Shown here one piece after another: positions 10,901 through 34,700 of a DNA stretch of 64,000 nucleotides (the stretch's first letter is position 1; every line of letters starts with the position of its first letter). The notes below the pieces were generated by a model. The model saw only the letters and a list, made by a program, of their open reading frames with translations, was not told the DNA's origin and made no database searches. The stretch covers positions 18,233-82,232 of the forward strand of contig JBFMCO010000022.1 of the NCBI GenBank assembly GCA_040754495.1. Direction: 5' to 3'. The DNA is from Candidatus Micrarchaeota archaeon (GTDB taxonomy: Archaea > Micrarchaeota > Micrarchaeia > Anstonellales > Bilamarchaeaceae). The position numbers and the translations under genes are program-made.

Positions 10901-13900
10901 GGCGCGTACCAGAACGGGGAGGGGAAGTGGGTCCGCCAGGAGGCGCAGCGCGGGGACGGTCCTGAAGGCATGGCTGCCATTAGCAGGATGCCAGGGTTCG
11001 CGGACTCGGAGCTCGTGAAGCACGCCATAGCGCAGGACGGGGTGAAGCCCGGCGCGAAGCCCGAGGAGCTCACCTGGAACGACTTGGTTGAGCAGGCGGT
11101 GAAGATGGGCGAGCTTCCGGACAGGCCGGAAGTCAGGCAGAACGCGTTCGCGGTGCCTATGGTGATAAACGGGAAGCCCGAAATCGTGGTCAAGGTCATG
11201 TTCGGCAAGCCGCCGGCAGACGCGCTCGAGGTGCGCTCGGTCCTGCAATCAAGGGGAATTGGCGGGCAGGTAGCCGCGGATGCAATAAACCTTTACAAGA
11301 TTTTCAATGGCGAGCAGGTGCCGCTCGAAGTCGCATCAAGATACATGGACGTCACGCTGCATGACCAGTACACGCGCATAAAGCAGGAGAAGATTGCCTC
11401 TGGGATGCCAGAGACGAAAGCCGATGCCGAGGCCCTCGTGGAGGTAGCCAAAAGCATGGCGCCCCGCGCCGGAGAGGGCGGGTTGGAAGCGGGCGGCCCG
11501 ATATCTCAGGAGGGGGTGGAGCTCCTCAGGATGGCCGAGGGGAAGCTCGACCTCGTGGAGGGGCTGACCGGGGCGGATGTCGCGAAGGCGACACTGGACT
11601 GGAGCCAGCCCAGGCTGGAGATGCTCAGGATTCTTACTGTTGAGGGAAGCCCGTACCGGGAGCGGTTCCTCGCAGCGGACCCGGCCGAGCGCGCGGTCAT
11701 CGCGGACGCGATTGCAAGGGGCGCGACACCGGAGCGCGCGTTCCTCAAGGCGGCCGAGGGCATGGTGCCTGCGGATGGCCGAAAACTGCTTGAGGTGGGA
11801 GAGCGGCTGAAGGGGCTTCCCGAAGCAGAGAGGAATCTCAGGTTAAGAGACCTTGAATCGCTGAATCCGGCCCTCGGAAGGATGCTTAAGAGGCTGGCGG
11901 ACCCTGCGACTCCGGAAACTGTGAAACAGGAGATTGCGGCCGAATGGGATTCGGCTGTTGCGGGCGCAGAGAGGCATAAGCGGGTCAATGAGGCGAGAGC
12001 GGCGCGGGACGCTGCGCAGCTTGCTGAGCAGGAGCTCGCCCTGCTGAAAGGGACGCCGGACGAGCAGGCCGCAGGACGCGTGCCGGCATGGATAGAGTCG
12101 GCCGCGAAGGCAAGGGGAAAGGACCCCGCGGCGCTCCATGAGGCGCTCGTGAAGGCATACGGAGAAGGCGGAACCGAAGGCAGGCTCAGGGTGCTTAACG
12201 AGCTGGGCGCGCTCGGCGGGATGCCTGAGGGGGTGCGCTCCACCTTCGTGCAGAACAGCCCGGAGTTCTTCGAGCTCATAGTGCGGGGCGGCCTTGAAGG
12301 CCGCGTGGCGGCGATGCCTGGATTCGAGGGCGGGATCATAGTCAATGCGGAGAAGCTCGAGGGGCTTCGCGGGGCGTACAAAATCGACGTGGAGATGCCG
12401 GACGGGTCAAAGCGCTCGCTGTTCGTGAAGGCCGAAGACCTGGTGCCGGCGCAGCTTGGAAGCGAGCTTGCCGGGGGGCATGGGCTTCTTCCGCCCGTGA
12501 TACACGCGGCCGACGGACAGGGCATGCCCTTCACCTATGATACGGGGATAAGATACACGGACCCCGTCTCAGGGCAGGAGACGGCGCACATGCAGGAGTT
12601 CGGCATAATGGAGGACGTCCATGATTATGCGACAGCCAGGCACAGCGACGTCATCATGCTTCCGGACGGCAGGAGCGCGCAGGTTACCGTGGAGAGCGTG
12701 GCGGTCGTCTCCAGGGAGGTGTTCGCGGACCCGGCGAGGATGCAGGCGATACTAGCGGACGAGCATCATCCCGCGCACAAGGTTGTCAAGGCGTTCTGGG
12801 AGCTTGCAAAAACAGAGGAGGGAAGGCAAAGGATTTTCCAGGCATGGCGGGCCTATCACGAGCTCTCGAGGAGGGCCATGCTCCTCGACCGGTTCGACAG
12901 GAACACGGTGGCAGTGCTCGTCACCACCCCGGAGGGAGAAAGCGTCCTCACGTTCCAGCCCATCGACATGGACTATGTGGCGGGAAAGATAGGCTCGGAC
13001 GGCGACCTTCGGTTCTTCAATGACGACTTCGCGTCAGCGAGCGTGGATTTTGCTACGAAGATTGCGGGGGCTGCGGGGGTTCCCGCAGAGACCGTCCTGG
13101 GAGAGATGGCGAAGGCGTACGGCTCTGACAGTGTGTTCCCGCGCGAAGCCGCGGACGAGAGGGCGGCCGCAGCGGCCTCGGTGCGCGCCACGCTGAACAA
13201 ATACGACGGCAAGCCTTTCGGGGCCGGCTACGACGTCGAGGACTACGGCAAGACGATTGGAAAGGATTACGTCGAATACGGCGGCAGGGACAGGATAGTC
13301 GGCCGGAGGGACGGCCGCGCGATTCTGCACGCCGGCGACATCACCCCGCTCGGCGAGCGGATAGGCGGGGCCGAGGCTGAGGCCGATTTCAGCAGGTTCA
13401 ATCGGGAGAAGTTCGAGAGGATGGCAAAGCCGCTCGAAGAAGCGGCTCCGCCTCCGGCAGTGGAAGCGCAGCCGCCCGCCGGAGAGAAGACTCCGCCCGG
13501 AAAGCGCGGTGCCGGCAACGTAACGCCGCCGGCAAGGCCGGGTGCGATGCGGGGCGCGCCTGCAGGCGGGCCGAGAACCGTGCCGGGCAAACGGGGGGCC
13601 GGAGGCGGGGAGCCGGTTGCAGCGCCGGGCGGAAGGAGGAAGGTGGCAATCGGAGGCGGGGAGGTGGAGCTCGAGCCTGCGCCGGAAAGGGCTCCGGAGC
13701 TCGCCGCGATGAAGATAAGCGAGGACGAGCTTTCGCAGCTCGGCGTCTCATACCAGGGCCTTTATCAGGACGGCGCAGGGAGGAGGCTGAACGTATTCGA
13801 AACGGAGGCCGGGGGGGAGAGGAGGCTTGTCGCCATCCCGGCAGACCTCAGCGGGAAGGCGATGCTCGATGCAATCGGGGCCGAGGTGCGCGCCCTGGGA

Positions 13901-16900
13901 AGGCCGACGGAACTGCCGCCGGAGCTGCGCGGCATGCCGCCGGACGTTTCGTCCCAGGTCGGGATGGACGGGGCGCCAAAGGCAAGGCTGCTCTCGTCCG
14001 AGCCCCTGGGGCGCGGCTCGAGCGCGGACGTGTATCTTGCGGAAATGGTGATTGACGGAAGGCCGACCCGCGTCGCGGTGAAGATATACAAGAACCCGGA
14101 GGGAAACGGGACGTGGCAGGAGCGGGCAGAATATTTCGCGGACGAGGTGAGGAAAGCGAAGATCCTGGGCGATGCAGGCCTCGGCCCGAAGGTGTTCGGG
14201 ATTGCCGATGCGGGCGGGAACATGGCTTTCGCGATGGAGGTCATCGAAGGCAAGCCGATGTACATAGACGAGATGGCGCCCGGGCTCCGCGCGAAATACA
14301 TCAATGAGGACACGTTCGCGCAGGTCCGGAAAATGTATGACGAGCTGATAGCCCACGGATACGAAATCGGCGATTTCGATTTCATGATATTGACCGAAGG
14401 GCCGAATGCCGGCAGGGTTGTGTTCCTGGACGCCGGGGCGCTGCGGGAGGTGCCGCGCGGCGCCCAGGGCGAGCCACGGCCAAGGTACGGCGACGGCGCG
14501 AAGAGGGCGGAGGGCGGGAGGCTTCAGGCTGAGGCCATGACCGCCATGGAATATTTCACGAAGATGGACCGCGACGAGCTTGCCGCGGTAGCCGAGGTCT
14601 CGAAGGGCCTGCTCGGACAGGGCCATGTGGATTCGGACACCATGCGCCTGCTTGCGGTAAGATGGGGGAGCCGCGAGGGAAGGGCCAGGGCGATAGGAGA
14701 GTATATCACCAGTATCGCAGGGGCCGATGAGCAGAAGGCAAAGGCCACGTTCGACGCGCTGAAACGCATCGAGGCGGAAACCGGCATACGGCTGCTGCCG
14801 GATGGCGCGAGGTTCGAGGACCTTGCAGCCAGGGCGGGGGAGGGCGAGATATCGGAGGCGGAAATCATCGCGCCGATGTCAGGGGACGATTACCATGCCG
14901 CGCTCGCAGGGATGCGCACGCAGGCAGCACGCGAAAGCGTAGCGCTCCACTTCAGCGGAAGGGGCGAAATCCCGGACGCGGCCACCTTCGAAAATGCTGC
15001 CATACTGGCCGATGAGGCGGCAGGCGCGAAGGTGCCGGAGCAGGGCCAGGCCGAGCTGTCCGTATATTATGATGGGAACGGCAGGATAATCGGCATAGCG
15101 GATAACGAGCGGCTCTTCTACGGCGACCCCAAGGCGATAAATGACAAGACGCCGGAGGCGAAGGTCAGGGTGGACCTGGAGAGCGGCAGGATAGTCTCCA
15201 TGGACGAGCGCGGCATGAAGAACCCGCTCCTTGCGGACCTGGTAGGGCTGAGGATACTTCCGGGCAAGGGAGCGGAGGGCGCAGGGCCCGGCGGAAGGGG
15301 CCCGCCACCGTTGCCCCCGATGAAAGTGCTTGACGAAGGCAGCATAGTTTCGGCTTATGCAAGCGGGACAGGGCAGGCGCAGAGGACGAGGGCCGCCCGG
15401 TCGTTCGTGATGCTCGATGGCGAGGGGCAGGGGAGGGTGATATCGGAGCTGCGCTCCCAGGGCCGCCATGAAGAGGCCAGGCATCTTACCGAGCTGCAGG
15501 CGATAGGTGGGGAAGCCGGCGCAGGCATCGAAAGGGTTTACGGAATCCCGAGGGACGAGATTATCACGATATACGCGCGGGAGCCGACAGCCCAGGGCGC
15601 GAGGAAGGCGCTCGCGGAGAGGCTCGGCATCGTCATCCTGCCTTTCGAATGGGAGCATTATCCTGCGGACAGGAGGCAGTGGGTGTCCGTCCCGTACCGG
15701 GATTTCAGGTCTTTCGAGGACGACCACTTCCTCTTCGGGCTCATTACCTCAGGGAACATGATTGACACGGTCTCGCAGATGTATCCGGGAGGGAGGATAG
15801 CCTCCATAGAATACCATAACGGGGCGATAGGCGCTTACGAGGTCGCCATCAGGACGCAAAACGGGGAGACGCGCACCGTTTTCGTGAAGAGGCAGGATTT
15901 GCGCCCGGATGCGGCCGGCTCGGACTACTCGGTCCGCTCAGGCGTCCCGGCTCCTGAGGTCATCACCAGCGCCGGAGGCAGGGAGCTTACTTACGTCGGC
16001 CCGGACGGGGAGGTCTCGCGCTACGGCATTATAACCAACATGAGGGATTTCGGGGGGATGATGAGGTTCGGGGGAGTCGAGGCGCAGGTCAGGGCTACGG
16101 ACGAGACCGCGCTGTGGGACCTCGACAGGAGCCCCCTTGCCGGCTCGCTCATGTCTCAGGACCCGCAGGTGAGGGCGAAATTCTGGGAGGAGCTCGGCTA
16201 CATGCTGGCAGGCTCTTACGCGACCGGGATATGGGACAGGCATGCGGGAAACGCGCGCGCGATGGTCCTCGAGGTGCAGAACGCGGACGCGCACACGAAC
16301 CCCGCGGACCAATCATCACCGACAGTGGGCGAGGCGCTGTCGCAGAAGGGCTACTGGGTGTGGCAGCAGGACGGAAAGACGTACATGTTCATGATAGGCG
16401 GCATAGACACCGACACCGCGGCCAACTACCTTGCCGGCGAGGCGCACGGCAGCTTCGACATGACCGGCATGAACATAAGGTACGGCTATGTCGACCTCCA
16501 CAGCCTCTTTAACAGGCTAGCGACGATAAGAGGCACGAGCGTGGATGCGCTCGTCATGGAAGCCTTCGGCGATGTCAGCGGCGGTCAGGTGCCCGGCCCG
16601 GTCGCGATGGGCATGAAGAGGTGGTGGCGCGACTTCGGGAGCGACCCGCACTATGCCGATGAGATGGCCGGCCGGTTCTCCAGCCACGAAGGCGAGAGCA
16701 TAGGCTTCGGATACCCCAGGACCGAGCAGGAGCTGGACGTGATAAGGCAGGGGGGCGTGCTCCATCAGGAGAATCCGCAGAACGGCGACCCTTACACCAT
16801 CATCGCCTTCGCTGACGGCAGGTCTCGGATGAGGCCGGAATACGAGATAGTGCACCGTGAGGACATCGAAGCCCTCGACCCGCGCATAGCCGCGATGTTC

Positions 16901-19900
16901 CCTCCAGGGAGGGACATGTACGCCGTGGAGATAACCGGCGAGGTGCGGAAGGCCGTTCCGGACATAGACAAGAGGACGAACCGCATCCGGACCTCGGACG
17001 GCAGGATGGTCGCGATAATAGACTCGGCCGACCCGCTCGCGAAAACGCTGCTCGACGGGGGAATTCCTATGGTGAAGGCGAGGCGCGACATGCCCCGGCA
17101 GGGAGAAGTTGCCGTGGATGATGCGACCGGCATAATACGGGCCGCTCCAGGGTTCGGAAAGCTGACCGGAATCCAGGCCTACCAGGCCGGCCCGGTTCCG
17201 GTTTTCCGGGCGATGATGGGGGCAGGGGAGGGGTTCATGCTCGGGCAGTTCGCGCACATCGGCCATTATATATTGGCCAAGGAAACGAGCGTGAGGGAAG
17301 CCGCGCAGGTTCCTGCCGGAGTGGTGGCCGGGGAGATAGAAGCGCCGGGAATAGAGCGCATGCCCGCCCCGGCGCAGGTGGAAGGGGTAAGGGGCGGGAT
17401 GAGGGACCTGGTAGGGGCAGTCAGGTCCGGAGACGAGGGCAGGATAAGGGCCGCGGAAGCCGAGTACGATAAGAGGCTCGGAGTGCTGGCCAGGCTAAGG
17501 CCAGATACGGAACTGAGGGTCGTGGAAAACGAGACGCTGTTCGCGGACCTGGCTCCAGGGGGGCAGGCACAAGCGAAGGTGCTCGCGGCAGACTATCTCA
17601 GGAACAGGTCCGCAGGAAAGAAGCTTGACGGCGACCTGCTCGTCATCGACTACCTCGTATCGCATGGAATGAACGCGGTGGATGCGGCTGCGGCAGTCGT
17701 GAATCTGGGGGGCGCCGGGAAGGCGCCTGCCCCTGTGACGCTTCCGCCGTACGTTGCCGAGCACTTCGGGACCAGGCAGCCTGACCCGGTCACGGCTGAA
17801 AACGCGCTGATTCTTGCCGGGGACAGGAATACGCTCGGAAGATTGGGCATACCGGACGGCCTTGGCAGGGTCCTGAAAAGCGAGGGCATGGCTGTCGTGT
17901 CCGAAGGAAAGAGGATGACCGAGGTGAGAGGCTATTACGATCTGGAGAGCGGCAGGATAATATACCTCGGCAGGACGGACGCGCCAAGGGAGGTCACGGC
18001 GGGAGGAGTGGAGTTCGTCCTCCGTTTCGACCATGAGAGCGGGAGGGTATCCATTCCGGAAAGCGAGGACGTGCCGCTTCCGGATTCGATTGCCAGGCTG
18101 AACGGAATGCGCATTGCGCCCCCGCCCCAGGCAGTGCCGTTTGGCGTTTTCGGCATTTTCATGCCACTGTTCAAGTATTTCAGGAAGCCCCCGGCAGCCG
18201 CCCCGCAACCTGAGGCCGTGCCCATCAAGGTCCCGAGGTCCAGGAACGACATCCAGGGAAGGGCCGAGGGCATAAGGGGGCTGCCCCCGGACCAGCAGGC
18301 GCAGGAGCTTGCGGGGCTGCACGATGCCGTGGCCGCCGAGCATGGCGACGTTTATGCGAGGAATTACCGCGACATGATGGAGGAGCTGGTGAAGCATCCG
18401 GAGCATTCGGGCAGGATTCTCGACGAGTGGGAGGCGGTGAGGGCCGAGGAGAAGCATTACGAGGCGCTCGAGAGGGCGAGGAGGTATGCCTTCTCGGCCG
18501 CAGAGGGGTTCGGGATTGTCAGGGGGCAGGACAGGAAGCTCATATCAGGCGGAGAGTACGCGGCGGACATGGCACGCTCGAGGGGCGAGAAGCCCAAGGC
18601 ATTCCGGAAACGGCTCCTCGAAGCGTATGATGCCGGGTTCAGGAGAGGAGGCGTGCTCGATGCGAGGCTCGGCGTGGCAAATTCGCTGGGTGTGCTCGAC
18701 AATATAGTGGTAGAGTCGCGGCCGGGCGTCTTGGACGAAAAGAGGACGATGCAGGCGAGGAAGGAATTCATCAGGAAGAACCCGGAGTTCTTCGACCTAA
18801 TCATGAGGGGCGGACTCGAGGAGGTCATCTCCGCGAACCTCGGGGCCGGCGACGTGAGAATCGCAGGAGTCTCGCACGCGGGCGGCATGGCGCGGGGCGC
18901 GTACGGCGTGGAGGTCCTCCTTCCGGACGGCAGGAGGAAGCGCGTGTTCGTGAAGCTGGAGGACCTCGGGCCTGCCGCGTTCGGGGCTGATTTGGCCAGA
19001 GTCGAGGGCATGATTGCGCCGAAAGTCTTCACTGCGGATTCGCAGGGAAGGCCGCTCTCGTATGACGTGAGCTACAAGGACCCCATCGGAAAGAGGATGG
19101 TGAGCGGCCAGAGGCGCTTTGGCATCATGCTGGATGTCCGCGACACGGTAGGGCAGAAGGCCAGGGTGAGGACCGCGGACGGGAGGTTCAGGGAGATAAC
19201 GGTCACGAGCGTGGCGCTCGTTGGCGACGACATCTTCAATGCCAGGTCGCTTGACGGGATACCCCAGCCCTCCAGGGCCGCCGCGGAGGACTTCTGGACC
19301 GCAATGGGAAGCGAGGGCGGGCGCGAGGAGATGTTCAGGACGTGGTACGCGTACCAGGAGATGTCAAGGCGGGCCACCCTCAGCGACAGGCACACCGGGA
19401 ATTCGATGTACGTCATCGGCGTGACGTCGGATGGCGAGACCGTGAGGACGTTCCAGCCCATAGACCCGGACGATATCGGAGCCAAGGTCGAGGCCAGGCC
19501 GGAGGGCATGAACTTCAGCGAGTTCAACGATTTTTCCGCGCTCTACACGTCGAATTTCGTGAACGGCCTGTACCTCGCGTCGGATAACGCCGCGAGCCTC
19601 GGCCTGCTCAAATCCCCGATCAACCGCGCGCAAGCGAGCAGGGCAGCATCGAGCGACGCCGCGATGTCAGGGTGGAGGCTTCCGGAAGACCCCGGGTGGG
19701 TGAGGTCCGCGGCTGAGTTCATAATCATGGATTACGATGGCAAGCCGTTCGGCCTCGGAACGGACATGACGATAGGCGGGCACGGCTCGTACATAAAATA
19801 CCATGCCGGCAGGAGGAGGGCGGCAGGCTACGACGGCCGCGTCCGGATGTACTCGGACGAGATGCTGGCGGTTTATCGGGGAGCGCAGGACCCTGCCAAC

Positions 19901-22471
19901 GCGGCGGATGTCGCGCGCAGGGTGGATGAGCGGATGGGCTGGGAGAACGCCGGCCACATGAGGGCGCTTGAGCGGAGGTATCCGGACCTCGGCACCCTGC
20001 CTCCGCACATGCAGGAGTACAGGGAGCCCCTCGAGCGTGCGCGCAGGCGCATAGCGGGCGGCGAGAAGCCCGATGACGTTTACCTTGACGAGTCGAAGAG
20101 GATGCTGAGGGCTAATCCCCGGGAGAGGGCGAAGGCCGAGGACATAATCACGAGGCACGGGAGGGGCGTGGCAGACGCCGAGGTGTCCGCGGTCCTGGAG
20201 TTCCAGAAGAGAAACGGCATCGCGTCTTTCGAAGATGCGGCGTATGCATTCGTGAGACAGCAGGCCGCGCCGAAACCTCCAGCGGAACCGCTGCAGCCAT
20301 CCGAAGCCATTTACCGGAAGCATGAAGCGAATATTTTCGGCCCTGCCCGGGGGCAGCTTGGCAGCGAGCTCCTTGCCAGCCTGAGGGGCGCTGAGGAGAG
20401 GATAGCCGGCATGGTGCCTGAGGGGCCGGAGAGGGAGCGCGCGCTCAAAAGATGGGGCGAGTTTGCAGACCGGGCGCTCTCGCGCATCGCCGATCTCCCG
20501 GCACCCGAGCGCGCGGACGCGCTGGCGCGCTTCATGATAGCGGGCGACTATCTCCTCACAAGGGCGGCTGAGAACCCGGCGCGCACGAAGGCATGGCTCG
20601 ATTTCATCGCCGACAACCCGAACGCCGTCGAATACGCCATGCTCGCCAAACGAGGTCTCGACATAAGGGCGCAGGACATAGTCGTGGCCGAAATCCGCCC
20701 CAGCATCCATGACATGTCTGACAGGAAAGCGCTGAAGAAGGCCCTCGGGAAGAGGGTATCGTTCATGGAGGACGTGATACGCGAGATACCGGAAAGGTGG
20801 TTCATGGAGGCGGGGGTGAGGCGCGATTATATGATGGACCTTGCAGGTTCCGACCCGCTCAGGGCGGCGGCCGAGCTCGACCGCGTCACGATGCCGCACG
20901 GAATCAGTGTTGTGAGGAAGGCAACGGGCGTGTACCTCGCAGAGGTCTCGCACACGTTCTCGCTGCATGGCCAGCCGGACATCCGGGGCCTCGTAATAAC
21001 CGGCGCTTACGGGACGGGCGACATGTTCGACGGCATGACCGCGTATTTCAATCCCCTCAGCGGCAGGATTTTCATGCGCGGGACTGCCCATTTCGCGGAG
21101 GCCGGCATACCGGAATCCGCGCTTCCGGGCATGAAGATGACGTACGTGCATGAGATGCAGCACCTGCTCGACAACGCCGGCGGGTATGTCGCGGCACTCT
21201 CGGCCAGGTCTGCAGGGCGCGGAATGGCCTTCATGCCGGAATACCGCGCCAGGCTCGAGACCACGGCGGTCGCGAGAGAGGTCCTGGAGATGGTTCCCCG
21301 GCTGGGGGGCCGCGGGACCGAGGATGCCATCAACGCAGCCATCAGGAAGGACCCGGAGGAATACAAGCAGGCTTACAGGAAGGCGCTGGACGCCATGCGC
21401 ACAGGCGAGGACGGAAGGCCCGACCCGGACTGGGCGGGCAGGCCGCCCGAGGTTCTGCAGAACCGGCTGAGGAAGCTTATAGACGACGAATACCGGAGCC
21501 TTATGCCGCTGAGCTATACCGAGCTCTACGGGCCGACAACCGCAGGGATCGTCCGCGGGGAGATCACGGTCAGGAAGCCGGCCGCCCCCGAGGCCGTTCC
21601 CTTCAAGCCCGCCGTAGCCGCGGACTCGGCTCCGGGACGCGGGGAGCCGGACCTGCTGCGCTCTGCCAAGTATGAAAATGGAATCCTGACGATAGAGGCG
21701 GATTACCTGGGAGGCGAGCTTGCACATGCGGTGAAGCCGCAATTCGCCGAATCCGCGGTGAATGGCGAGTTCATCCCTTCCGGCGACAGGACAAAGCCGA
21801 GCGGCCTGTGGCTCTCGTGGGGCTCCGGCTGGGATTACTTCACAGGGAGCAACCCCGGCCTGATGTTCAAAGGCACCGTGAAGTTCAGGGCCGAGATGAG
21901 GTCCGGATTGAAGCTCTTCCTGCTTGACGGGCGCGAATCTTTCGATAGCATGATGGCCGAATTCCGGCGGGAAGTTAAGGTCGCCGAGACAACGGGGAGC
22001 GGGTATCCGGATGGCACCTGGCCTGATAACAACTGGGTGTACTACGAGAAGAGCCCATGGCAGTGGCTTAGGGAAAGGGGCTATGACGGCGTGGCCGTGA
22101 CGGAGGAGGGATATCTGGATACCAATTTCCAGTTCGGCTGGGACGCGGCCTCCATAGTCATTTTCGAGCCTGCGGGCAATGTGCGCCTGCCTGGAGGCGA
22201 AGCCAGGCTGGAGGAGTACAGGAAGGGTGCCCAGGGCAGCGCGGACGCCATGCTGCCCCTTATTGAAGAGGCAGGCCTGCCGTTATTCGGCCCGAATAAG
22301 GCGTATGACCTCATAGAGGCGTACGCCGGCGGCAGGGCTGAGCGCAGCCCGGGAAAGCGCATCGATGCCGAGGATGAGGCTTTCCTTAAAAAGCTCCTGG
22401 ACGAGAAACCGGGCCTTGAAGAGGCTGCGAAAAGGATTATCGAATACGTTAGAAAGAGGGAAGGGGGATAG
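1946..22471 (+). CDS. Giant multidomain protein (6,841 aa). N-terminal ~1,900 aa are Ala/Glu/Lys/Arg-rich and helical-looking. It also carries an internal hydrophobic helix cluster, three PI3K/PI4K-like kinase modules, one RIO/Bud32-like kinase module, a Pro/Gly-rich linker and a C-terminal HExxH segment
   Basis: A single uninterrupted 20,526-nt ORF, which cannot occur by chance even at 65% GC. Motifs were read directly from the translation (see the sub-features below). No N-terminal signal peptide. Confidence 0.85.
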   Translation: MGQKPAERQPEVRDEGVRVAQPQVPMVPREQPRGGANEAAANAATGLGVMGKFAAVLDFIIADPSRAEGRLAEFSRRLEPYRADYPEETRIALGLFGAASRMYREAQDARAHGDTQRAQELEDSARAHFREGMAKAGSVPGMAQDIHSLAGAGASPEWIESRKAAFNDVGLGTWNRAIAIDQAVEWRVKNDAIIDAGGPAAREAEARMRDEAVRLAEGSRQGQAFSEQDYQDTMRRFSEASAPVTALAAHIHGAAALFHQAAMRQGVSEQYTKAMEDLKKEFDKLLKKLEEGTATKEDVEKAKELADAVKAAETDLEGLSGDDAVTVSGIHARGLSALRQGKGEMARVQRQLAREYAKTKDPGMRKKLERWSADLAKGKAPEAELERWLEAQRPAEFRALTTENIKRETAERAGLLREKGYERSHPRETKRIAELDREAAKALEEAKALRKRGDLDGAGKLEAKAFRLLREARAKVLWLERLDRFQARLAGIKEPPEMKKAAEEVSKALGGAFNFIGTQDGWRARLAFIAADVFIRYGKVLQSKPAAPLLKGILSIVGILSDPRKKVDEKRAQEEVGRLEPKALSAELGGLKGKVDDKAHSKLTDAVKAASGFIGTNQQWRAAYLLRGVKFFLDNREKIGTRGKLFEGIMGFLGRLADPKGEIGEEEAKREFARITGIPAEAPAQAGGRREAALTVAGLKQAGEGFEKRLRAIPGHEEQVRSITETVKLAGEEFRAGNVKKAQELLALAEKKAAALEGVVEREKRIDASGAPEEAREKLKKAGLAAFNDLGKQSGGRFDTVVKATDLFLGGMERKLWLQPGGETAALKLLDFIGRLGEGALQGLEFDSQAAESELSDISAQAGELWKAMLGASITEWLRLIEGWRTMGGLGTANAKFLDDLAESYRALQKRLEEGAKAEDIEQEASALEARAEHAKKIGEELEERERAVAVFRGDVEDFKADTAAFRASERFKKYAADAEPYVKKAEEWEEKAATFMAEAEKLEGDAKAEMIKRAADAVKRSEELLGHAGKIIGLREAGASDEVVSAYRKAANSYIAVFEPAPPGLAGEAQIFPDDVLAYAAIVFSAADSYLFFRKHGRAEAEKRAERLVLGTTFASRIADAEAELRGLDGEMEYAEAIDSDTAARKQKLMDSATELRGDKRKVPKPREGSAEWYGQMALDALERGDFAVADLAVYRGMFEKVAPGGGRNYVPEDIERDISAVLRGEKVPAAGELDRYLTLIDSASLTAQADLLKRDNPVSGSAEERERKQRVHKLAEEIKRRADAHDFAGAERLLEMATVYTGLARDKKWKAFAGADRMEAALDAELAGGDHSGEFQAAVVYQKASEETASFRASLADWGAGLAENKKLVERGLLRVEQLVSEGKTEEAGALFGQLMLYAGAVRTFAAPKKRDVIPGFDPAYDSSKLGGMGLALDALIKGEAEVGGKKPEEVFSQSFLETQREYLNKRADAYLRLSEKMPVGAETVGQGLAEVRRRAAEGDFEGALRLLEMAGNYYGEAAPGKQAGWRYRDATRKGPGYERGRQDMLNAISMEIAAKDPADHDEALETFNSGSQRISVAKAAIERYEIVERNIYNALPTAVIDEWDHHGTIALRGEPTPENEEGPVLGRVSMEKIRRYESEHPDDTALGGGLSLKTLLTKMKKAAEEGDDEAFRKYEKAFFSRLYLVAGRILRREQLEENRQEVKKYIEVLEGFTAAITIDQLVPYGWLEGDDERLKKVTALEKQLKNNEISKAEFESKLNVILSERLQMIEQNKFTDKVPGPMRETVRQLAPRAKALLERARGLYGKLEKMDNNSSEFPLEEYKQVVKDLSALTEEYQTQRKISVAYSHIDQQLQMNKSYHEAIAGEGALASDYPDAYGRAVKFLGFSNGHFKKAQELLLKGEFKQAGAEFERGINRREWALMEADPNVLFGQANTYLGNLPISMLTGVPIIPESTTAMDEVSMIKHRPGWGVLKLAARGRGEDPYKYTYGWAKQQMENDQDVNLGNPARPDYVKDPQQSWAYYNYSPITEYGADFMGYEELGGRLWNSVLEGDGRKVQRYQKQMLVMEASVFYIPVDTFIDGINSKITYKDWQKRIHFQAMYNGDLAYDELFGDWGLMDARTGAKIAEGVGMFALSIATMGLGSVGFVVGGGKMLWDAIDGIQKDLAKYGEVTTMSWVNLGLTVVGLGASAAAGRLVKASQTAIEAAKLGDAAKFTTQVARAGRFATAARVVAYTDITVNVIGMVPQFYYGIKLMAEGKYAEGTQQLAFGAFSAFMAYHGGVQQLRGMRGLKTEIAKMGALREAHAKAPEVFASLSTPEGMFSFLQRVRARDPVSLVIYDNLPKPQRILFDGMLADRNVVSALKKNDIGLARGAFDSGLETFKQLSDLGGTRALTDAAHLGTQAGLEPFMRDLLIPESATGPQRTRRDAAYARLGEMKKRPETAEAAATIETLLKDKDVQKGNETGVLKIGWAADEIRSQQMQTINRYTDSVVSGEQARLGLYSSEGEAARANAKRIGDSYLAYARARSEGKPFDWDYHAKRMGMGPEDAKKLFAKLDAVPDARTVAGVISREGVRQAVRNRVALDGRAILGDTPLTELAGEGALFSRWGELTPEDLFGMALNRRERAAEELEGAGRETDGRLAAAKRERATALSREADALDAEVKRRQAPEEVLTPDSLRSGAKEKFGRAQRLRSEGRDEEAFALESEARRSIALAADLEKFGEYGIVRATPDGQFIHRDFPDRRFTRAELDDAAILVRAIRKRGVPTDKRLLAIYDALPKEVKKDYRGGEDALMKSVLDVIYSRRGQAAEAAAPVLRSEELPVPSDPALAAVAGMTVPGTNLRWGVIPPDQVLQWQAKVYEAYKAAYGKIGLIYDSPEAMFAKNPEVLVATDGEGRIVAFTILKKTAFGTKLSLVGAVPDIPEGRAAARAMIQGFPALEGAYITAPGAPAHLAIKAGVPVVPYDSARIIQGEVPAEAGSPGAYQNGEGKWVRQEAQRGDGPEGMAAISRMPGFADSELVKHAIAQDGVKPGAKPEELTWNDLVEQAVKMGELPDRPEVRQNAFAVPMVINGKPEIVVKVMFGKPPADALEVRSVLQSRGIGGQVAADAINLYKIFNGEQVPLEVASRYMDVTLHDQYTRIKQEKIASGMPETKADAEALVEVAKSMAPRAGEGGLEAGGPISQEGVELLRMAEGKLDLVEGLTGADVAKATLDWSQPRLEMLRILTVEGSPYRERFLAADPAERAVIADAIARGATPERAFLKAAEGMVPADGRKLLEVGERLKGLPEAERNLRLRDLESLNPALGRMLKRLADPATPETVKQEIAAEWDSAVAGAERHKRVNEARAARDAAQLAEQELALLKGTPDEQAAGRVPAWIESAAKARGKDPAALHEALVKAYGEGGTEGRLRVLNELGALGGMPEGVRSTFVQNSPEFFELIVRGGLEGRVAAMPGFEGGIIVNAEKLEGLRGAYKIDVEMPDGSKRSLFVKAEDLVPAQLGSELAGGHGLLPPVIHAADGQGMPFTYDTGIRYTDPVSGQETAHMQEFGIMEDVHDYATARHSDVIMLPDGRSAQVTVESVAVVSREVFADPARMQAILADEHHPAHKVVKAFWELAKTEEGRQRIFQAWRAYHELSRRAMLLDRFDRNTVAVLVTTPEGESVLTFQPIDMDYVAGKIGSDGDLRFFNDDFASASVDFATKIAGAAGVPAETVLGEMAKAYGSDSVFPREAADERAAAAASVRATLNKYDGKPFGAGYDVEDYGKTIGKDYVEYGGRDRIVGRRDGRAILHAGDITPLGERIGGAEAEADFSRFNREKFERMAKPLEEAAPPPAVEAQPPAGEKTPPGKRGAGNVTPPARPGAMRGAPAGGPRTVPGKRGAGGGEPVAAPGGRRKVAIGGGEVELEPAPERAPELAAMKISEDELSQLGVSYQGLYQDGAGRRLNVFETEAGGERRLVAIPADLSGKAMLDAIGAEVRALGRPTELPPELRGMPPDVSSQVGMDGAPKARLLSSEPLGRGSSADVYLAEMVIDGRPTRVAVKIYKNPEGNGTWQERAEYFADEVRKAKILGDAGLGPKVFGIADAGGNMAFAMEVIEGKPMYIDEMAPGLRAKYINEDTFAQVRKMYDELIAHGYEIGDFDFMILTEGPNAGRVVFLDAGALREVPRGAQGEPRPRYGDGAKRAEGGRLQAEAMTAMEYFTKMDRDELAAVAEVSKGLLGQGHVDSDTMRLLAVRWGSREGRARAIGEYITSIAGADEQKAKATFDALKRIEAETGIRLLPDGARFEDLAARAGEGEISEAEIIAPMSGDDYHAALAGMRTQAARESVALHFSGRGEIPDAATFENAAILADEAAGAKVPEQGQAELSVYYDGNGRIIGIADNERLFYGDPKAINDKTPEAKVRVDLESGRIVSMDERGMKNPLLADLVGLRILPGKGAEGAGPGGRGPPPLPPMKVLDEGSIVSAYASGTGQAQRTRAARSFVMLDGEGQGRVISELRSQGRHEEARHLTELQAIGGEAGAGIERVYGIPRDEIITIYAREPTAQGARKALAERLGIVILPFEWEHYPADRRQWVSVPYRDFRSFEDDHFLFGLITSGNMIDTVSQMYPGGRIASIEYHNGAIGAYEVAIRTQNGETRTVFVKRQDLRPDAAGSDYSVRSGVPAPEVITSAGGRELTYVGPDGEVSRYGIITNMRDFGGMMRFGGVEAQVRATDETALWDLDRSPLAGSLMSQDPQVRAKFWEELGYMLAGSYATGIWDRHAGNARAMVLEVQNADAHTNPADQSSPTVGEALSQKGYWVWQQDGKTYMFMIGGIDTDTAANYLAGEAHGSFDMTGMNIRYGYVDLHSLFNRLATIRGTSVDALVMEAFGDVSGGQVPGPVAMGMKRWWRDFGSDPHYADEMAGRFSSHEGESIGFGYPRTEQELDVIRQGGVLHQENPQNGDPYTIIAFADGRSRMRPEYEIVHREDIEALDPRIAAMFPPGRDMYAVEITGEVRKAVPDIDKRTNRIRTSDGRMVAIIDSADPLAKTLLDGGIPMVKARRDMPRQGEVAVDDATGIIRAAPGFGKLTGIQAYQAGPVPVFRAMMGAGEGFMLGQFAHIGHYILAKETSVREAAQVPAGVVAGEIEAPGIERMPAPAQVEGVRGGMRDLVGAVRSGDEGRIRAAEAEYDKRLGVLARLRPDTELRVVENETLFADLAPGGQAQAKVLAADYLRNRSAGKKLDGDLLVIDYLVSHGMNAVDAAAAVVNLGGAGKAPAPVTLPPYVAEHFGTRQPDPVTAENALILAGDRNTLGRLGIPDGLGRVLKSEGMAVVSEGKRMTEVRGYYDLESGRIIYLGRTDAPREVTAGGVEFVLRFDHESGRVSIPESEDVPLPDSIARLNGMRIAPPPQAVPFGVFGIFMPLFKYFRKPPAAAPQPEAVPIKVPRSRNDIQGRAEGIRGLPPDQQAQELAGLHDAVAAEHGDVYARNYRDMMEELVKHPEHSGRILDEWEAVRAEEKHYEALERARRYAFSAAEGFGIVRGQDRKLISGGEYAADMARSRGEKPKAFRKRLLEAYDAGFRRGGVLDARLGVANSLGVLDNIVVESRPGVLDEKRTMQARKEFIRKNPEFFDLIMRGGLEEVISANLGAGDVRIAGVSHAGGMARGAYGVEVLLPDGRRKRVFVKLEDLGPAAFGADLARVEGMIAPKVFTADSQGRPLSYDVSYKDPIGKRMVSGQRRFGIMLDVRDTVGQKARVRTADGRFREITVTSVALVGDDIFNARSLDGIPQPSRAAAEDFWTAMGSEGGREEMFRTWYAYQEMSRRATLSDRHTGNSMYVIGVTSDGETVRTFQPIDPDDIGAKVEARPEGMNFSEFNDFSALYTSNFVNGLYLASDNAASLGLLKSPINRAQASRAASSDAAMSGWRLPEDPGWVRSAAEFIIMDYDGKPFGLGTDMTIGGHGSYIKYHAGRRRAAGYDGRVRMYSDEMLAVYRGAQDPANAADVARRVDERMGWENAGHMRALERRYPDLGTLPPHMQEYREPLERARRRIAGGEKPDDVYLDESKRMLRANPRERAKAEDIITRHGRGVADAEVSAVLEFQKRNGIASFEDAAYAFVRQQAAPKPPAEPLQPSEAIYRKHEANIFGPARGQLGSELLASLRGAEERIAGMVPEGPERERALKRWGEFADRALSRIADLPAPERADALARFMIAGDYLLTRAAENPARTKAWLDFIADNPNAVEYAMLAKRGLDIRAQDIVVAEIRPSIHDMSDRKALKKALGKRVSFMEDVIREIPERWFMEAGVRRDYMMDLAGSDPLRAAAELDRVTMPHGISVVRKATGVYLAEVSHTFSLHGQPDIRGLVITGAYGTGDMFDGMTAYFNPLSGRIFMRGTAHFAEAGIPESALPGMKMTYVHEMQHLLDNAGGYVAALSARSAGRGMAFMPEYRARLETTAVAREVLEMVPRLGGRGTEDAINAAIRKDPEEYKQAYRKALDAMRTGEDGRPDPDWAGRPPEVLQNRLRKLIDDEYRSLMPLSYTELYGPTTAGIVRGEITVRKPAAPEAVPFKPAVAADSAPGRGEPDLLRSAKYENGILTIEADYLGGELAHAVKPQFAESAVNGEFIPSGDRTKPSGLWLSWGSGWDYFTGSNPGLMFKGTVKFRAEMRSGLKLFLLDGRESFDSMMAEFRREVKVAETTGSGYPDGTWPDNNWVYYEKSPWQWLRERGYDGVAVTEEGYLDTNFQFGWDAASIVIFEPAGNVRLPGGEARLEEYRKGAQGSADAMLPLIEEAGLPLFGPNKAYDLIEAYAGGRAERSPGKRIDAEDEAFLKKLLDEKPGLEEAAKRIIEYVRKREGG
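8320..8800 (+). other. Cluster of 2-4 predicted transmembrane or amphipathic helices inside the giant ORF (about aa 2126-2286)
   Basis: Hydrophobic, Gly-rich stretches: VGMFALSIATMGLGSVGFVVGGG, TTMSWVNLGLTVVGLGASAAAG, VVAYTDITVNVIGMVPQFYYGI and LAFGAFSAFMAYHGGV. Confidence 0.5.
12260..13080 (+). other. PI3K/PI4K-like module A (about aa 3439-3712); probably degenerate because the catalytic loop reads DRFDRN instead of DRHxxN
   Basis: Has SLFVKAEDL (compare IFKxGDDLRQD), LDRFDRNTVAVLV and FQPIDMDY. Shares the ~270-aa architecture of modules B and C, beginning PEFFELIVRGGLE. Confidence 0.55.
13440..13640 (+). other. Pro/Gly/Arg-rich low-complexity linker with repeated PGKRGAG units (about aa 3832-3899)
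   Basis: PPPAVEAQPPAGEKTPPGKRGAGNVTPPARPGAMRGAPAGGPRTVPGKRGAGGGEPVAAPGGRRK. Confidence 0.6.
13990..14450 (+). other. RIO/Bud32-like (ePK-fold) kinase module (about aa 4016-4169)
   Basis: Glycine-loop-like LGRGSSADVYLA, VAIK-like RVAVKIYK, catalytic-loop-like YEIGDFDFMIL and DFG-like VVFLDAG. Confidence 0.6.
15805..16520 (+). other. PI3K/PI4K-like module C (about aa 4621-4859) with an intact catalytic loop
   Basis: TVFVKRQDLRPD, GIWDRHAGNARAMVLEV and FMIGGIDTDTAANY. Confidence 0.65.
18781..19590 (+). other. PI3K/PI4K-like module B (about aa 5613-5882) with an intact catalytic loop
   Basis: NPEFFDLIMRGGLEE, RVFVKLEDLGP, LSDRHTGNSMYVIGV and FQPIDPDD. Collinear with modules A and C. Confidence 0.65.
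21060..21330 (+). other. HExxH-containing segment near the giant-ORF C-terminus (about aa 6403); a possible metallopeptidase-like module
   Basis: MTYVHEMQHLLDNAGGY. The same HExxH-x-LD pattern occurs in ORF 577..1545. Confidence 0.4.
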
Positions 22472-31777: not shown

Positions 31778-34700
31778 TCACAGGAAATCGGACAGCCCCA
31801 TCTGCTTGACCTTGTCGTCCTCGAATATGCTCTTTATCTCCCGCTCGACAAGCACCAGCCTCTGCTTCAGGTAGGAGGGAAGGTCGTAGCGGTCGCATAT
31901 GTCGCGGGATATCTCCAGGTATTTCTCGATTCCGCCCTTGTTGATTGTGAGGAGGAGGTTGCCCCCGCAGCGCGCGCACTTGCCCGCCAAGGGCACCCTG
32001 CGGAAGATGGTGTTGCACGAGACGCAGCGGAAGGTCTGCCTTGAGAAGGAGCGCAGGTTGCCGTAGAGGTCCGGGATGAAATGGCTCAGTATCAGGCGCT
32101 CGGCTGCATCGCGCCTATCAACCGGGCGGAGGCGGCCCTGGAGCCTGAACTGTATGTCTATCTTGTCCGGTATGGACTGCAGCTCCACGTAAGCCGTCCG
32201 TATGTTCCCGACATCAAGCGTGCCGCCCGGATGCGTGATGGGAAGCTCGTACTGCTCGTCGGTCCCCAGGACGTCCTTCACGGTCTTGAGCTTCACCTCG
32301 CCCGGCGGCGCGAAGCGCTCCGCGGCCTCGTAGAACTCGAGGGGGTAGCGCGAGACGATTTCGATGCAGTGCGCCTCGTCGTCCACCTCCTTGGGGTTTA
32401 TCTCTATGGAGAGCACGAGGGGCGCGTCCATGGTGCCCCCGCGCTTCTCGTCGAGGAACCTGCGGGAGAAGTTGATGAGGGCGTCCATCAGGAGCATCAC
32501 GCAGTCCTCGTCGCCGTCGCACCGAATCGTAAAGACCTGGTTGTTCAGAAGAACATTCTTTTCTTCCAGGGATTGGCCTTCCACATCGAGGCAGTATGCC
32601 GGAACTCCGTCTGTGAATTTCTCAATCGACCTGACCTTATCGAAAATATAGTCGCTTTGAGGCACGACCGTGAACAGCTTATTCTGGTATTTGATAAATC
32701 GCGCATCGCTCGACAGACCGTTTCTTCTCAGTTCGGACATTCGTTCTGCCTTATGCTTCACAGAGGGCGCGCAGATATTTGCAAAGGCATATAGGTCGGT
32801 GCCATAAAGACTAATGAATCTCTGCGAAAGCAAACGCGGGGTTTTTCCGAGCTCTTTATACCTTTCAAGGACCTTTTTGCCAGGCAAACGCGGTTTGGTT
32901 TTGCCATACCTGCAGAAGATTCCAAATCGCAAAAGCAGCGTGCCGAAATCCTCCAAAAGATTTTGTGAAACGGAGTAGAAGTGCATTCTCGGGGGGGTGG
33001 CGATTACACTTCCATCTCCGTCAAAATAAGCAGAAATAAAGGATTTGACAAGACGGTCAGGCAGTGAAAAGACGAGATTTGGAACCCGTTTCGTGTAGGC
33101 ATTTGAGCCGGTCTTCAAGACTTTATCAAACAGAAGGTGGATTATCCGGCTGCACATTGTTATCTGAGTGCCGTTCTCGCCAAGATAAGGGTTCGTCATA
33201 AAAACGCTTTTGATGGCGGCAATAAGCCGGTTCTGCATTATTTTATTGCAAACCCTGAAGCTGACCTGATAACACGAAGGGCTTCTCCGTGCATACCCCT
33301 CTGAGACGAAGTAGCCGAGAATGAGCATCAGGTCCTCATCTATTGGAATTCTTACCGGCAGCCCCAGGTTATCTCTCTTCATGGCAATTTTTGCATCCAT
33401 GGGCAAATCCTCAAAATTGCACACCCCCTCTTCCACAAGGATTTCGAAATGGGAGAGTGGAACGCGTCCATACCACCTGCTCGGAGTCCGTCTCTCGATT
33501 TTGTTGAGCGGCAGGATTCTGAGCAGCAAATCGCGATGATTATAGAATATTTTCTTGAAAAAATCCTTCGAGCGAAGTATTATCGCTTCTTTTTCTTCCT
33601 TTTTTAGTGGAGATAGGGCCTTTGCAAGATTGAGCACGCGGGAGTCGTCTATCGTGTGCGGATTGAATTTTATGCAAACTGGCAGATCGGAGCCTTCAGT
33701 CATATCTTTTGCCTGAACTGCGCTAAGCGCCCCTTTGTTGAGGCAAAGAATATTATGGTCGGGAGTCACGGTAATCTCCCGGTGGGTGGTTGTCGTAAGC
33801 TTAATCCATTTATCGGGAGCCTTTGCTCTGATGAAGCATTTGATTTTTTTACGGATTGTTTTGTGGGATTGGAGGTCTATTCCGAATGAGTAAAGAGTTC
33901 CGGGAACTTCCACTTTTTCTGTATAAGCATCAAGCCGCTTGACCCTGTCGGGGTATTTGGCAAACATTTCTTCGGTAACATCGCCCAGTGCCCTTTTGAT
34001 ATATTTTTTCTCGTGCTCATCAAATATGATAATCTCGGTTGCCGGATGGAAGCAGTTCCTTCTCTTCGCCGTGTGGAAATACGGGTGGCCGTAGCCGACG
34101 TTGGCCTTGTTGAAGCCCACGATGCGGCACAGGACGCCGGCGCTCGTGTGCGGCGAGAGCCCGACTGCCAGGTGGCCTATCAGGTCGTCCTTCGACTTCA
34201 CGTTGTAGAAGGGCTTCATGCCGTAGAGGTTGATTAGCATGTCGTCGATGAAATCCGCCACACGCATGAAGTACGCGGCGCCGTTCTCGGAGAGGACGAT
34301 GTCCTGGTGCCGCAGCGCCAGCGTCTGGGAGCCGCTCTCGAGGGGCTTGCCAAGATAATCCACGGCATAACCGAGCGCCCTGGCCCTATCGAGGCTTATG
34401 CCCACCTCGTCCGGCGTGAAATGCGTGAGCGGGATGTCTGTCGCGTCGAAGCGGGAGGTGCCGTCCCTGAAAACGTAGACGTCGTGCTTTGCGCGGAGGA
34501 AGCCCTTCTCCAGCCGCTCCGGGATGCGGATGGTGTTCGAGAGGCCCTTCACCCCCTTCACGTCTTCCGGGGAGCTCCCCACCCGGTCCTTCACGCGCTC
34601 GAAGAGCTCCATTATGTCTACGGGCCTGCGGTCGTAGGAGAGCGTCTTCATCTCGCAGTGGATTTCGTACTCGCAGATGCGGCCGCACTTCTGGCATATC

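Follow-up and report, generated by a model that had tools for sequence, protein, structure and literature searches.

A compact protein-kinase-fold module of a hitherto unannotated family in a 6,841-residue protein of a Candidatus Micrarchaeota archaeon

The DNA analyzed here, referred to as the window, is a stretch of 64,000 nucleotides from a Candidatus Micrarchaeota archaeon (contig JBFMCO010000022.1, positions 18,233 to 82,232 of the forward strand). Positions 1946 to 22471 of the window (+ strand) are occupied by a single uninterrupted open reading frame (ORF) of 6,841 codons. In an exact sequence look-up, its translation (6,841 amino acids [aa]) was identical to MEW6035399.1 (AB1529_02190), which is annotated at NCBI as a "hypothetical protein" of a Candidatus Micrarchaeota archaeon metagenome-assembled genome (MAG) on an 88.9-kb contig. 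Searches of the whole protein against Pfam, NCBIfam, and PHROG gave no match above threshold. A sequence-only reading had flagged positions 13990 to 14450 of this gene, corresponding to aa 4015 to 4169, as a RIO/Bud32-like kinase embedded between modules resembling phosphatidylinositol 3-kinase (PI3K). The subject of this study is the minimal protein-kinase-fold module at this site, whose hidden Markov model (HMM) envelope spans positions 13916 to 14530 (aa 3991 to 4195, + strand) and exceeds the flagged interval. Pro/Gly-rich linkers lie between modules of the giant protein, and the one upstream of the kinase module (13433 to 13645, + strand; aa 3830 to 3900) is a low-complexity segment rich in Pro, Gly, and Ala in the translation. 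On the downstream side, a helical tail (14531 to 14812, + strand; aa 4196 to 4289) accompanies the kinase module in some of the relatives: BLAST matches reach aa 4281 to 4315 in P0001, P0002, P0003, P0007, P0010, P0012, P0014, P0024, P0028, and P0032. Two antisense ORFs (13748 to 14626 and 13765 to 14385) overlap the kinase module; we consider them the usual by-product of a GC content of 63%, and homology at the module was detected exclusively in the + frame.

Read in frame, the module contains all the motifs that the sequence-only reading had listed, in the order typical of eukaryotic protein kinases (ePKs). These are, all on the + strand, (i) a glycine-rich (P-)loop, LGRGSSADVYLA (14006 to 14041), which follows the family pattern G-S-[ST]-[AG]-x-V-[YF], (ii) a VAVK motif (14072 to 14083) with the beta3 ATP-anchoring Lys4046 (codon 14081 to 14083), aligned to the VAVK Lys of PknA, (iii) the catalytic loop G-D-F-D-F (14369 to 14383), in which Asp4143 (codon 14372 to 14374) is the equivalent of the HRD Asp, and (iv) the metal-binding loop L-D-A-G (14426 to 14437), the equivalent of DFG, with Asp4162 (codon 14429 to 14431), aligned to the DFG motif of PknA. 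Between VAVK and GDFDF, Glu4067 (14144 to 14146, + strand) is spaced as a glutamate of helix alpha-C should be; it falls within the predicted helix 68-87 of the structural model described below and is aligned to the alpha-C Glu of PknA.

Relatives were retrieved by searching 1.84 billion representative proteins with aa 3990 to 4200 in an index-free HMMER (phmmer) scan. A threshold of E <= 1e-3 gave 62 proteins, and 21 of these reached E <= 1e-10. Word-index protein searches with aa 3920 to 4300 and with A1, the alignment of 34 family sequences, found nothing; we regard these as false negatives because the HMMER scan readily found the same family. Apart from the column counts in A1, the residue frequencies given here refer to 63 domain copies. 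Exactly three columns of A1 are invariant, namely, the beta3 Lys (K57), the catalytic-loop Asp (D154), and the metal-loop Asp (D173), and the alpha-C Glu (E78) as well as several glycines are near-invariant. Accordingly, K4046, E4067, D4143, and D4162 are kept in 60, 54, 61, and 62 of the 63 copies, respectively. In the P-loop, Gly4024 is kept in 56 of 63 copies, and the module retains one of the three canonical glycines. The family version of the catalytic loop is G-D-F-Q-[FY], and the position +2 to the catalytic Asp is Gln in 55, Glu in 4, and Asp in 2 of the 63 copies, the last two being the window copy (Asp4145) and its nearest relative. The Asn of the D-x-x-x-x-N signature, the second metal ligand, is not present in the family: the loop reads G-D-F-[Q/E/D]-[FY], without His or Arg preceding the catalytic Asp and without Asn at +5, and in the HMMER alignment with PknA the Gln of the family is placed opposite the catalytic-loop Asn by means of a 3-residue gap. 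Five relatives (P0010, P0020, P0024, P0026, and P0032) have an insertion of some 60 to 80 residues between beta3 and alpha-C; in RIO kinases a flexible loop is located between these two elements.

Part of this pattern is what one would expect of a pseudokinase that has no catalytic activity and acts in the giant protein as a scaffold or as a sensor of nucleotides, namely, the lack of the catalytic-loop Asn and of the HRD His and Arg, the degenerate glycine loop, and the departure of the window copy from the family-consensus Gln. However, pseudokinases typically lose at least one of the Lys, Glu, and two Asp residues that are retained here in 54 to 62 of the 63 copies, from archaea and bacteria, and 61 of 63 copies have a conserved polar residue (Gln, Glu, or Asp) at the site that calls for a metal ligand. 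We thus consider a pseudokinase unlikely. The four catalytic residues are kept in copies from both domains of life, the picture expected of an enzyme under purifying selection.

The relationship to known kinases was apparent from a profile search of the Protein Data Bank (PDB) with A1. Mycobacterium tuberculosis PknA was matched with E = 3.8e-10 over profile positions 26 to 187, the Lys, Glu, Asp, and DFG positions all being aligned in register, and further matches included MARK2 (3e-6), StkP (4e-6), HopBF1 (9e-5), ArkI (9e-5), STK24/25, and PknB. Arabidopsis Bud32 (4e-3) and TP53RK (8e-3) followed at a distance, and there was no RIO chain among the top 60 matches. The window itself contains the start of a Hanks-type Ser/Thr kinase gene (LGEGGMGRVYRG ... 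REVAIKV) at positions 63344 to 64000 (+ strand), which is cut by the window end and matches Pfam Pkinase with E = 2.2e-12. An hhalign comparison of A1 with this partial kinase gave a probability of 95% and E = 2.4e-8; within the window, it is the conventional kinase most closely related to the module. The 62 relatives, the near-invariant catalytic residues, and the PknA profile match bear out the earlier proposal of an ePK-like module and establish the kinase fold, the family, and its conserved Lys-Glu-Asp-Asp catalytic set. With the module as a single sequence, the PDB search returned sub-threshold matches (E of 0.07 to 2), mostly to kinases in register on the N-lobe, and the Pfam search returned nothing at E <= 10 besides an irrelevant DUF, hence neither Pkinase nor RIO1 nor Kdo/Bud32. 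Among the 34 family members, Pfam gave sub-threshold matches to Pkinase (2 members, best 0.011), PK_Tyr_Ser-Thr (PF07714; 4 members, best 0.0056), and APH (2 members, best 1.8e-4). Judged by sequence, the family is nearest to the bacterial/archaeal Hanks-type Ser/Thr kinases (PknA, PknB, and StkP; PF00069), with which it shares, in register, the beta3 Lys, the alpha-C Glu, the catalytic Asp, and the DFG-type Asp. It differs from them in that it remains under the Pfam thresholds, in that its catalytic loop is 3 residues shorter and lacks the His, Arg, and Asn, and in that the module comprises ~200 instead of ~270 residues, without an activation segment/APE and subdomains IX to XI in the model.

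That model was obtained with AlphaFold2 using A1 as input and has a predicted local distance difference test (pLDDT) score of 92.8 and a predicted template modeling (pTM) score of 0.87; it was used in place of a single-sequence model, which was unusable (pLDDT 39.5). The model has a bilobal protein-kinase-like (PKL) fold that consists of a short N-terminal extension, a five-stranded N-lobe, alpha-C, a hinge, alpha-D/E, the catalytic loop, and the metal-binding loop, and downstream of D173 only two short strands and one helix (195-210) are predicted. The model, which ends before the helical tail (the tail to aa 4289 is outside the model), lacks an activation segment, the APE motif, and helices alpha-F to alpha-I (subdomains IX to XI), and the alignment shows no conserved APE-like motif. 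In a Foldseek search with the model, Rio1 was found at rank 37. The structural matches include CurKC, the kinase of a lanthipeptide synthetase, and ArkI, and the RIO structures (1zp9 and 1tqi) lead ordinary kinases by less than 1.2 Z units. As modeled, the architecture corresponds to the "minimal kinase" build of RIO, Bud32, OspG/NleH, and HopBF1. OspG/NleH and HopBF1 are small effectors that proteobacterial pathogens secrete by the type III route, and their catalytic loops are canonical, whereas the module analyzed here is part of a 6,841-aa archaeal protein and has a G-D-F-[QD] loop; a link to secretion systems is not part of our case.

The minimal build also bears on the proposal that the module is a true RIO or Bud32 kinase fused into the giant protein, in which case it would act as an ATPase/kinase in ribosome maturation or in the synthesis of the tRNA modification N6-threonylcarbamoyladenosine (t6A). 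According to LaRonde-LeBlanc and Wlodawer, RIO kinases reportedly have an STGKEA P-loop, a [LIV]-H-x-D-L-S-E-Y-N catalytic loop, and an I-D-x-x-Q metal loop; Bud32 is characterized by a G-A-E-A P-loop, an H-G-D-L-T-T-S-N catalytic loop, and its association or fusion with Kae1. The corresponding loops of the module are G-S-S-A-D-V-Y, which is partly similar but has no Lys, G-D-F-D-F, and L-D-A-G-A. The catalytic-loop and metal-loop signatures of RIO and Bud32 were not found in the module or the family, and the P-loop pattern G-x-x-A-x-V-[YF] is the only RIO-like signature of the module. A single-sequence phmmer search gave Rio1 with E = 0.26, the alignment covering the P-loop and beta3, and the truncated C-lobe without an activation segment in the model, together with the N-terminal extension before the N-lobe, is shared with RIO kinases (A. 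fulgidus Rio1, 1zp9; Rio2, 1tqi). Against membership, the check with the Pfam RIO1 (PF01163) and Kdo/Bud32 profiles that the sequence-only reading had suggested gave no match for the window copy or any of the 34 relatives, the PDB profile search prefers Hanks-type kinases over TP53RK by orders of magnitude, and Rio1 is far down the structural ranking. RIO kinases are furthermore stand-alone, near-universal housekeeping proteins of ~200 to 300 aa, whereas the family is embedded, patchy, multi-copy, and lineage-restricted, with four carriers in one MAG, the opposite of universal single-copy housekeeping genes. In the same way, the module differs from Bud32/TP53RK (KEOPS) and ArkI in lacking H-G-D-L-T-T-S-N and a Kae1/Cgi121 context, no Kae1-like neighbor being present among the window ORFs scanned, and in being part of a giant protein. 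It is therefore very improbable that this locus encodes a RIO or Bud32 kinase. What survives of the proposed resemblance is the truncated C-lobe and the P-loop pattern. Since the profile prefers Hanks-type kinases and the RIO/Bud32 models and signatures are unmatched, the module is placed in a separate family of the protein-kinase-like superfamily that has a RIO-like architecture and is not a member of RIO/Bud32.

The family occurs for the most part as a component of very large proteins from ultra-small archaea and bacteria. Among the 62 relatives, 37 host proteins have at least 1,000 aa and 9 have at least 5,000 aa, one of the relatives being a 7,727-aa Omnitrophota protein. A giant host protein is thus the rule and not the exception for this family; the fusion that had been regarded as unusual would be so for RIO/Bud32 but is not for the family to which the module belongs. 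Four relatives contain two copies of the kinase module, and in many the module is located no more than ~250 residues from the C terminus. The sources named are Ca. Micrarchaeota/Micrarchaeia, Ca. Woesearchaeota, Ca. Gottesmanbacteria of the candidate phyla radiation (CPR), Ca. Omnitrophota, and Elusimicrobia, a statement on lineages that covers the 9 of 62 relatives with a named organism. The nearest relative shares 54% identity and is encoded on an 8.2-kb contig (L001) of "archaeon isolate DeMMO3_33" (one match in the genome scan); it has the module and the helical tail at its C terminus, and the rest of the protein is unrelated. By eye, the N-terminal part of this relative appeared GGDEF-like, an impression that was dropped for lack of Pfam support. 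Single-protein scans retrieved no relatives from IMG/VR viral contigs or from metagenome contigs. The MAG from which the window originates has four carriers, namely, AB1529_02190 (6,841 aa), AB1529_04980 (6,147 aa; P0021), AB1529_05015 (6,652 aa; P0025), and AB1529_07945 (1,228 aa; P0008), the last of which contains two kinase-module copies. This tiny, symbiotic DPANN archaeon encodes at least three paralogous multi-module giants of 6 to 7 thousand residues, which amount to ~59 kb of coding sequence; DPANN genomes typically have a size of ~1 Mb.

In the giant protein, the kinase module lies amid three modules that are paralogous to each other according to self-BLAST. Type A is present in two copies, at positions 12242 to 13066 (aa 3433 to 3707, + strand) and 18764 to 19573 (aa 5607 to 5876, + strand), which share 39% identity (self-BLAST E = 1e-47), whereas type B occupies positions 15710 to 16585 (aa 4589 to 4880, + strand); all three were delimited by self-BLAST and local HMMs, and copy 1 of type A also by an alignment (A3). 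The invariant residues of type A are K-x-E, or K...E as seen in copy 1, D-R-x-x-x-N, and I-D-x-D, and type B contains FVKRQDLRPD, D-R-H-x-x-N, and I-D-T-D. The motifs of PI3K and PI4K are K...D-L-R-Q-D, D-R-H-x-x-N, and D-F-G, which the motifs of the flanking modules recall, the FVKRQDLRPD segment of type B being reminiscent of the K...D-L-R-Q-D of PI3K/PIKK. Type A and type B modules had no Pfam match and no PDB profile match. Comparison by hhalign with an approximate sequence of the PIK3CA kinase domain gave a probability of <1%, and comparison with the ePK family was non-significant, with an in-register alignment of the N-lobe only (E = 0.027). The position of the kinase module between related modules was hence described correctly in the sequence-only reading, and the PI3K label for its neighbors reflects a likeness at the level of motifs. 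The kinase module and type A occur together in 8 relatives, 6 of which also have type B, in varying order; most family members have no type A or B neighbors. The kinase module is last in P0003, first in two paralogues from the same MAG, and second in the window protein, so that these modules are shuffled, separable units.

Other recognizable domains in the relatives, though few in number, provide information on the possible substrate. P0018 (Ca. Gottesmanbacteria, CPR; 3,148 aa) contains two FHA domains, which bind phospho-Thr, and in P0033 (Elusimicrobia; 2,201 aa) a RamC_N domain (residues 1573 to 1673), which we take to be the phospho-Ser/Thr lyase domain of lanthipeptide synthetases, is found ~140 residues upstream of the module (residues 1813 to 2016). 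The FHA and lyase domains point to protein Ser/Thr phosphorylation. Further partner domains are HD-GYP, metallophosphatase, and transglutaminase-like peptidase, along with a weak, sub-threshold PIN match (E = 3.8e-4). Alternatively, the module might phosphorylate a small molecule, lipid, or glycan in the manner of APH or choline kinases and work with the flanking lipid-kinase-like modules on the membrane or envelope. The weak APH matches in 2 of the 34 members (best 1.8e-4), a model devoid of peptide-binding C-lobe elements, the D-R-H-x-x-N and I-D-x-D motifs of the neighbors that recall PI3K/PI4K, and the presence of ArkI, an RNA 2'-O-kinase, among the matches would fit this proposal. Yet the top sequence relatives are protein Ser/Thr kinases, FHA and RamC_N domains occur in relatives, the PI3K-likeness of the neighbors is unconfirmed, and most family members lack such neighbors, so that we assign a low probability to a non-protein substrate of this kind.

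We regard it as likely, and with good confidence, that the locus encodes a compact kinase-fold domain of ~200 residues, from a hitherto unannotated family, that is a probable active Ser/Thr-type module in a multi-enzyme giant protein. Going by the sequence, the module is most likely an active ATP-dependent phosphotransferase, and its substrate would most likely be Ser/Thr on a protein. ATP/Mg2+ would be bound via Lys4046-Glu4067 and Asp4162, and Asp4143 would act as the catalytic base in the transfer of the gamma-phosphate. In place of the missing Asn, the shortened loop may offer the Gln of the family or the Asp of the window copy as the second metal ligand, an idea derived from one HMMER alignment to PknA and not from coordinates. 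Because the module has no activation segment and no substrate-binding C-lobe, the choice of substrate probably depends on adjacent regions of the giant protein or on a partner that docks to it. The kinase module is one bead among shuffled enzyme modules that are separated by low-complexity linkers.

This array may act on the cell of a partner (the host) or where the two are in contact. Two reports propose that giant ORFs of small-genome episymbionts serve in attaching to partner cells or in attacking them (PMC10066038; bioRxiv 10.1101/2023.11.21.568195). The Omnitrophota giant ORFs/"Archaeovorins" and the nanohaloarchaeal giants presented there resemble the window protein in being very long, poorly annotated, multi-enzyme ORFs (PMC10066038; bioRxiv 10.1101/2023.11.21.568195). 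A term search of these two texts located "kinase" in acetate/propionate kinase, pyruvate-phosphate dikinase, and histidine-kinase-like ATPase, and no protein-kinase-fold module was among the passages so located (PMC10066038; bioRxiv 10.1101/2023.11.21.568195); what can be recognized in the window protein is instead a set of three or four modules that resemble kinases, along with a zincin-type motif. A literature search yielded papers on giant proteins of Omnitrophota, CPR, and nanohaloarchaea, and no description of the kinase family was found among the texts that it returned. The kinase fold is already known, and it is the family, its Asn-less shortened loop, and its giant-protein habitat that are outside Pfam/NCBIfam coverage. 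Since the named carriers belong to ultra-small, host-dependent lineages and giant ORFs of such lineages have been proposed to serve in attachment or attack, the array probably acts, by analogy, at or in the partner cell. A more far-reaching and tentative proposal, which we find possible though rather doubtful, is that the module is a founding example of a cross-domain minimal "G-D-F-Q" kinase family, which ultra-small episymbionts of both domains (DPANN, CPR, Omnitrophota, and Elusimicrobia) combine with other enzyme modules in giant proteins to phosphorylate components of partner cells, with Gln/Asp in a shortened loop replacing the otherwise near-universal Asn.

A number of points weigh against an active protein kinase with such a role. 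(i) The catalytic loop has neither the HRD His/Arg nor the Asn with which nearly all active kinases hold the second metal, and the substitution of Gln for this Asn comes from a single HMMER alignment. (ii) The window copy is off-consensus at +2, sharing its Asp with one other of the 63 copies, and its P-loop has a single canonical glycine. (iii) The APH matches, APH being a small-molecule phosphotransferase, make a non-protein substrate possible. (iv) Given the hydrophobic segment at aa 2133 to 2151, the module may or may not face the ATP-containing cytoplasm. (v) The host-interaction role draws on lineage and analogy, with a named organism for 9 of the 62 relatives.

Several other segments of the giant protein, all encoded on the + strand, deserve mention. 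Its sole strongly hydrophobic cluster is located mid-chain at aa 2133 to 2290 (8342 to 8815) and is composed of one clear candidate membrane helix (aa 2133 to 2151) and two or three weaker ones, to approximately aa 2290; the ~2,100 residues upstream are helical and rich in Ala, Glu, and Arg. Within this part, the region of aa 120 to 680 (~2300 to 3990) shares 25 to 32% identity with P0002, P0003, P0007, P0013, and P0015, which otherwise differ but bear the modules, and may serve all of them for anchoring or targeting. The segment of aa 2829 to 3087 (~10430 to 11200) has counterparts in P0009, at 57% identity over part of that protein, and in P0014, at 31% identity, likewise over a part; judged by eye, it may have a GNAT-type acetyltransferase core. 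An H-E-M-Q-H zincin-type metallopeptidase motif is present at aa 6402 to 6406 (21149 to 21163), in a domain (aa 6165 to 6557) that shares 48% identity with the Micrarchaeia giant P0003 and had no match in a Pfam search.

The genes that flank the giant ORF have housekeeping functions (formyltransferase, CysRS, and PolD). PolD and CysRS mark the window as archaeal. An intein that contains a LAGLIDADG homing-endonuclease domain splits the PolD large subunit (DP2; 31778 to 36658, - strand), and a tRNA-Gly(CCC) gene is located at positions 461 to 540 (+ strand), 1.4 kb 5' of the giant gene. The proximity of this tRNA gene to the ORF recalls an element integrated beside tRNA-Gly, in which case the giant would be a "polyvalent protein" encoded by a phage or a conjugative element, with the kinase as an injected anti-host effector. 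Iyer et al. are said to have described polyvalent proteins in 2017 as strings of unrelated enzyme modules, which the giant protein resembles. This origin is nevertheless highly improbable, as there was no PHROG family above noise and no IMG/VR relative, the GC content of the gene (0.59 to 0.66) is like that of the rest of the window, the flanking genes are housekeeping genes, and no integrase was seen, the evidence for an integrase or repeats having been sought only through composition and PHROGs.

The preferred reading, that of a probable active Ser/Thr-type kinase module, has several implications. It assigns a first recognizable catalytic function to part of a wholly unannotated 20.5-kb gene, and it corrects a plausible but wrong assignment to the RIO/Bud32 family. 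Kinase biology gains a family that retains the Lys-Glu-Asp-Asp set even though its catalytic loop is shortened and has no Asn. A conserved kinase domain of ~200 to 300 residues that DPANN, CPR, and Omnitrophota share offers an experimental handle on what their giant proteins do.

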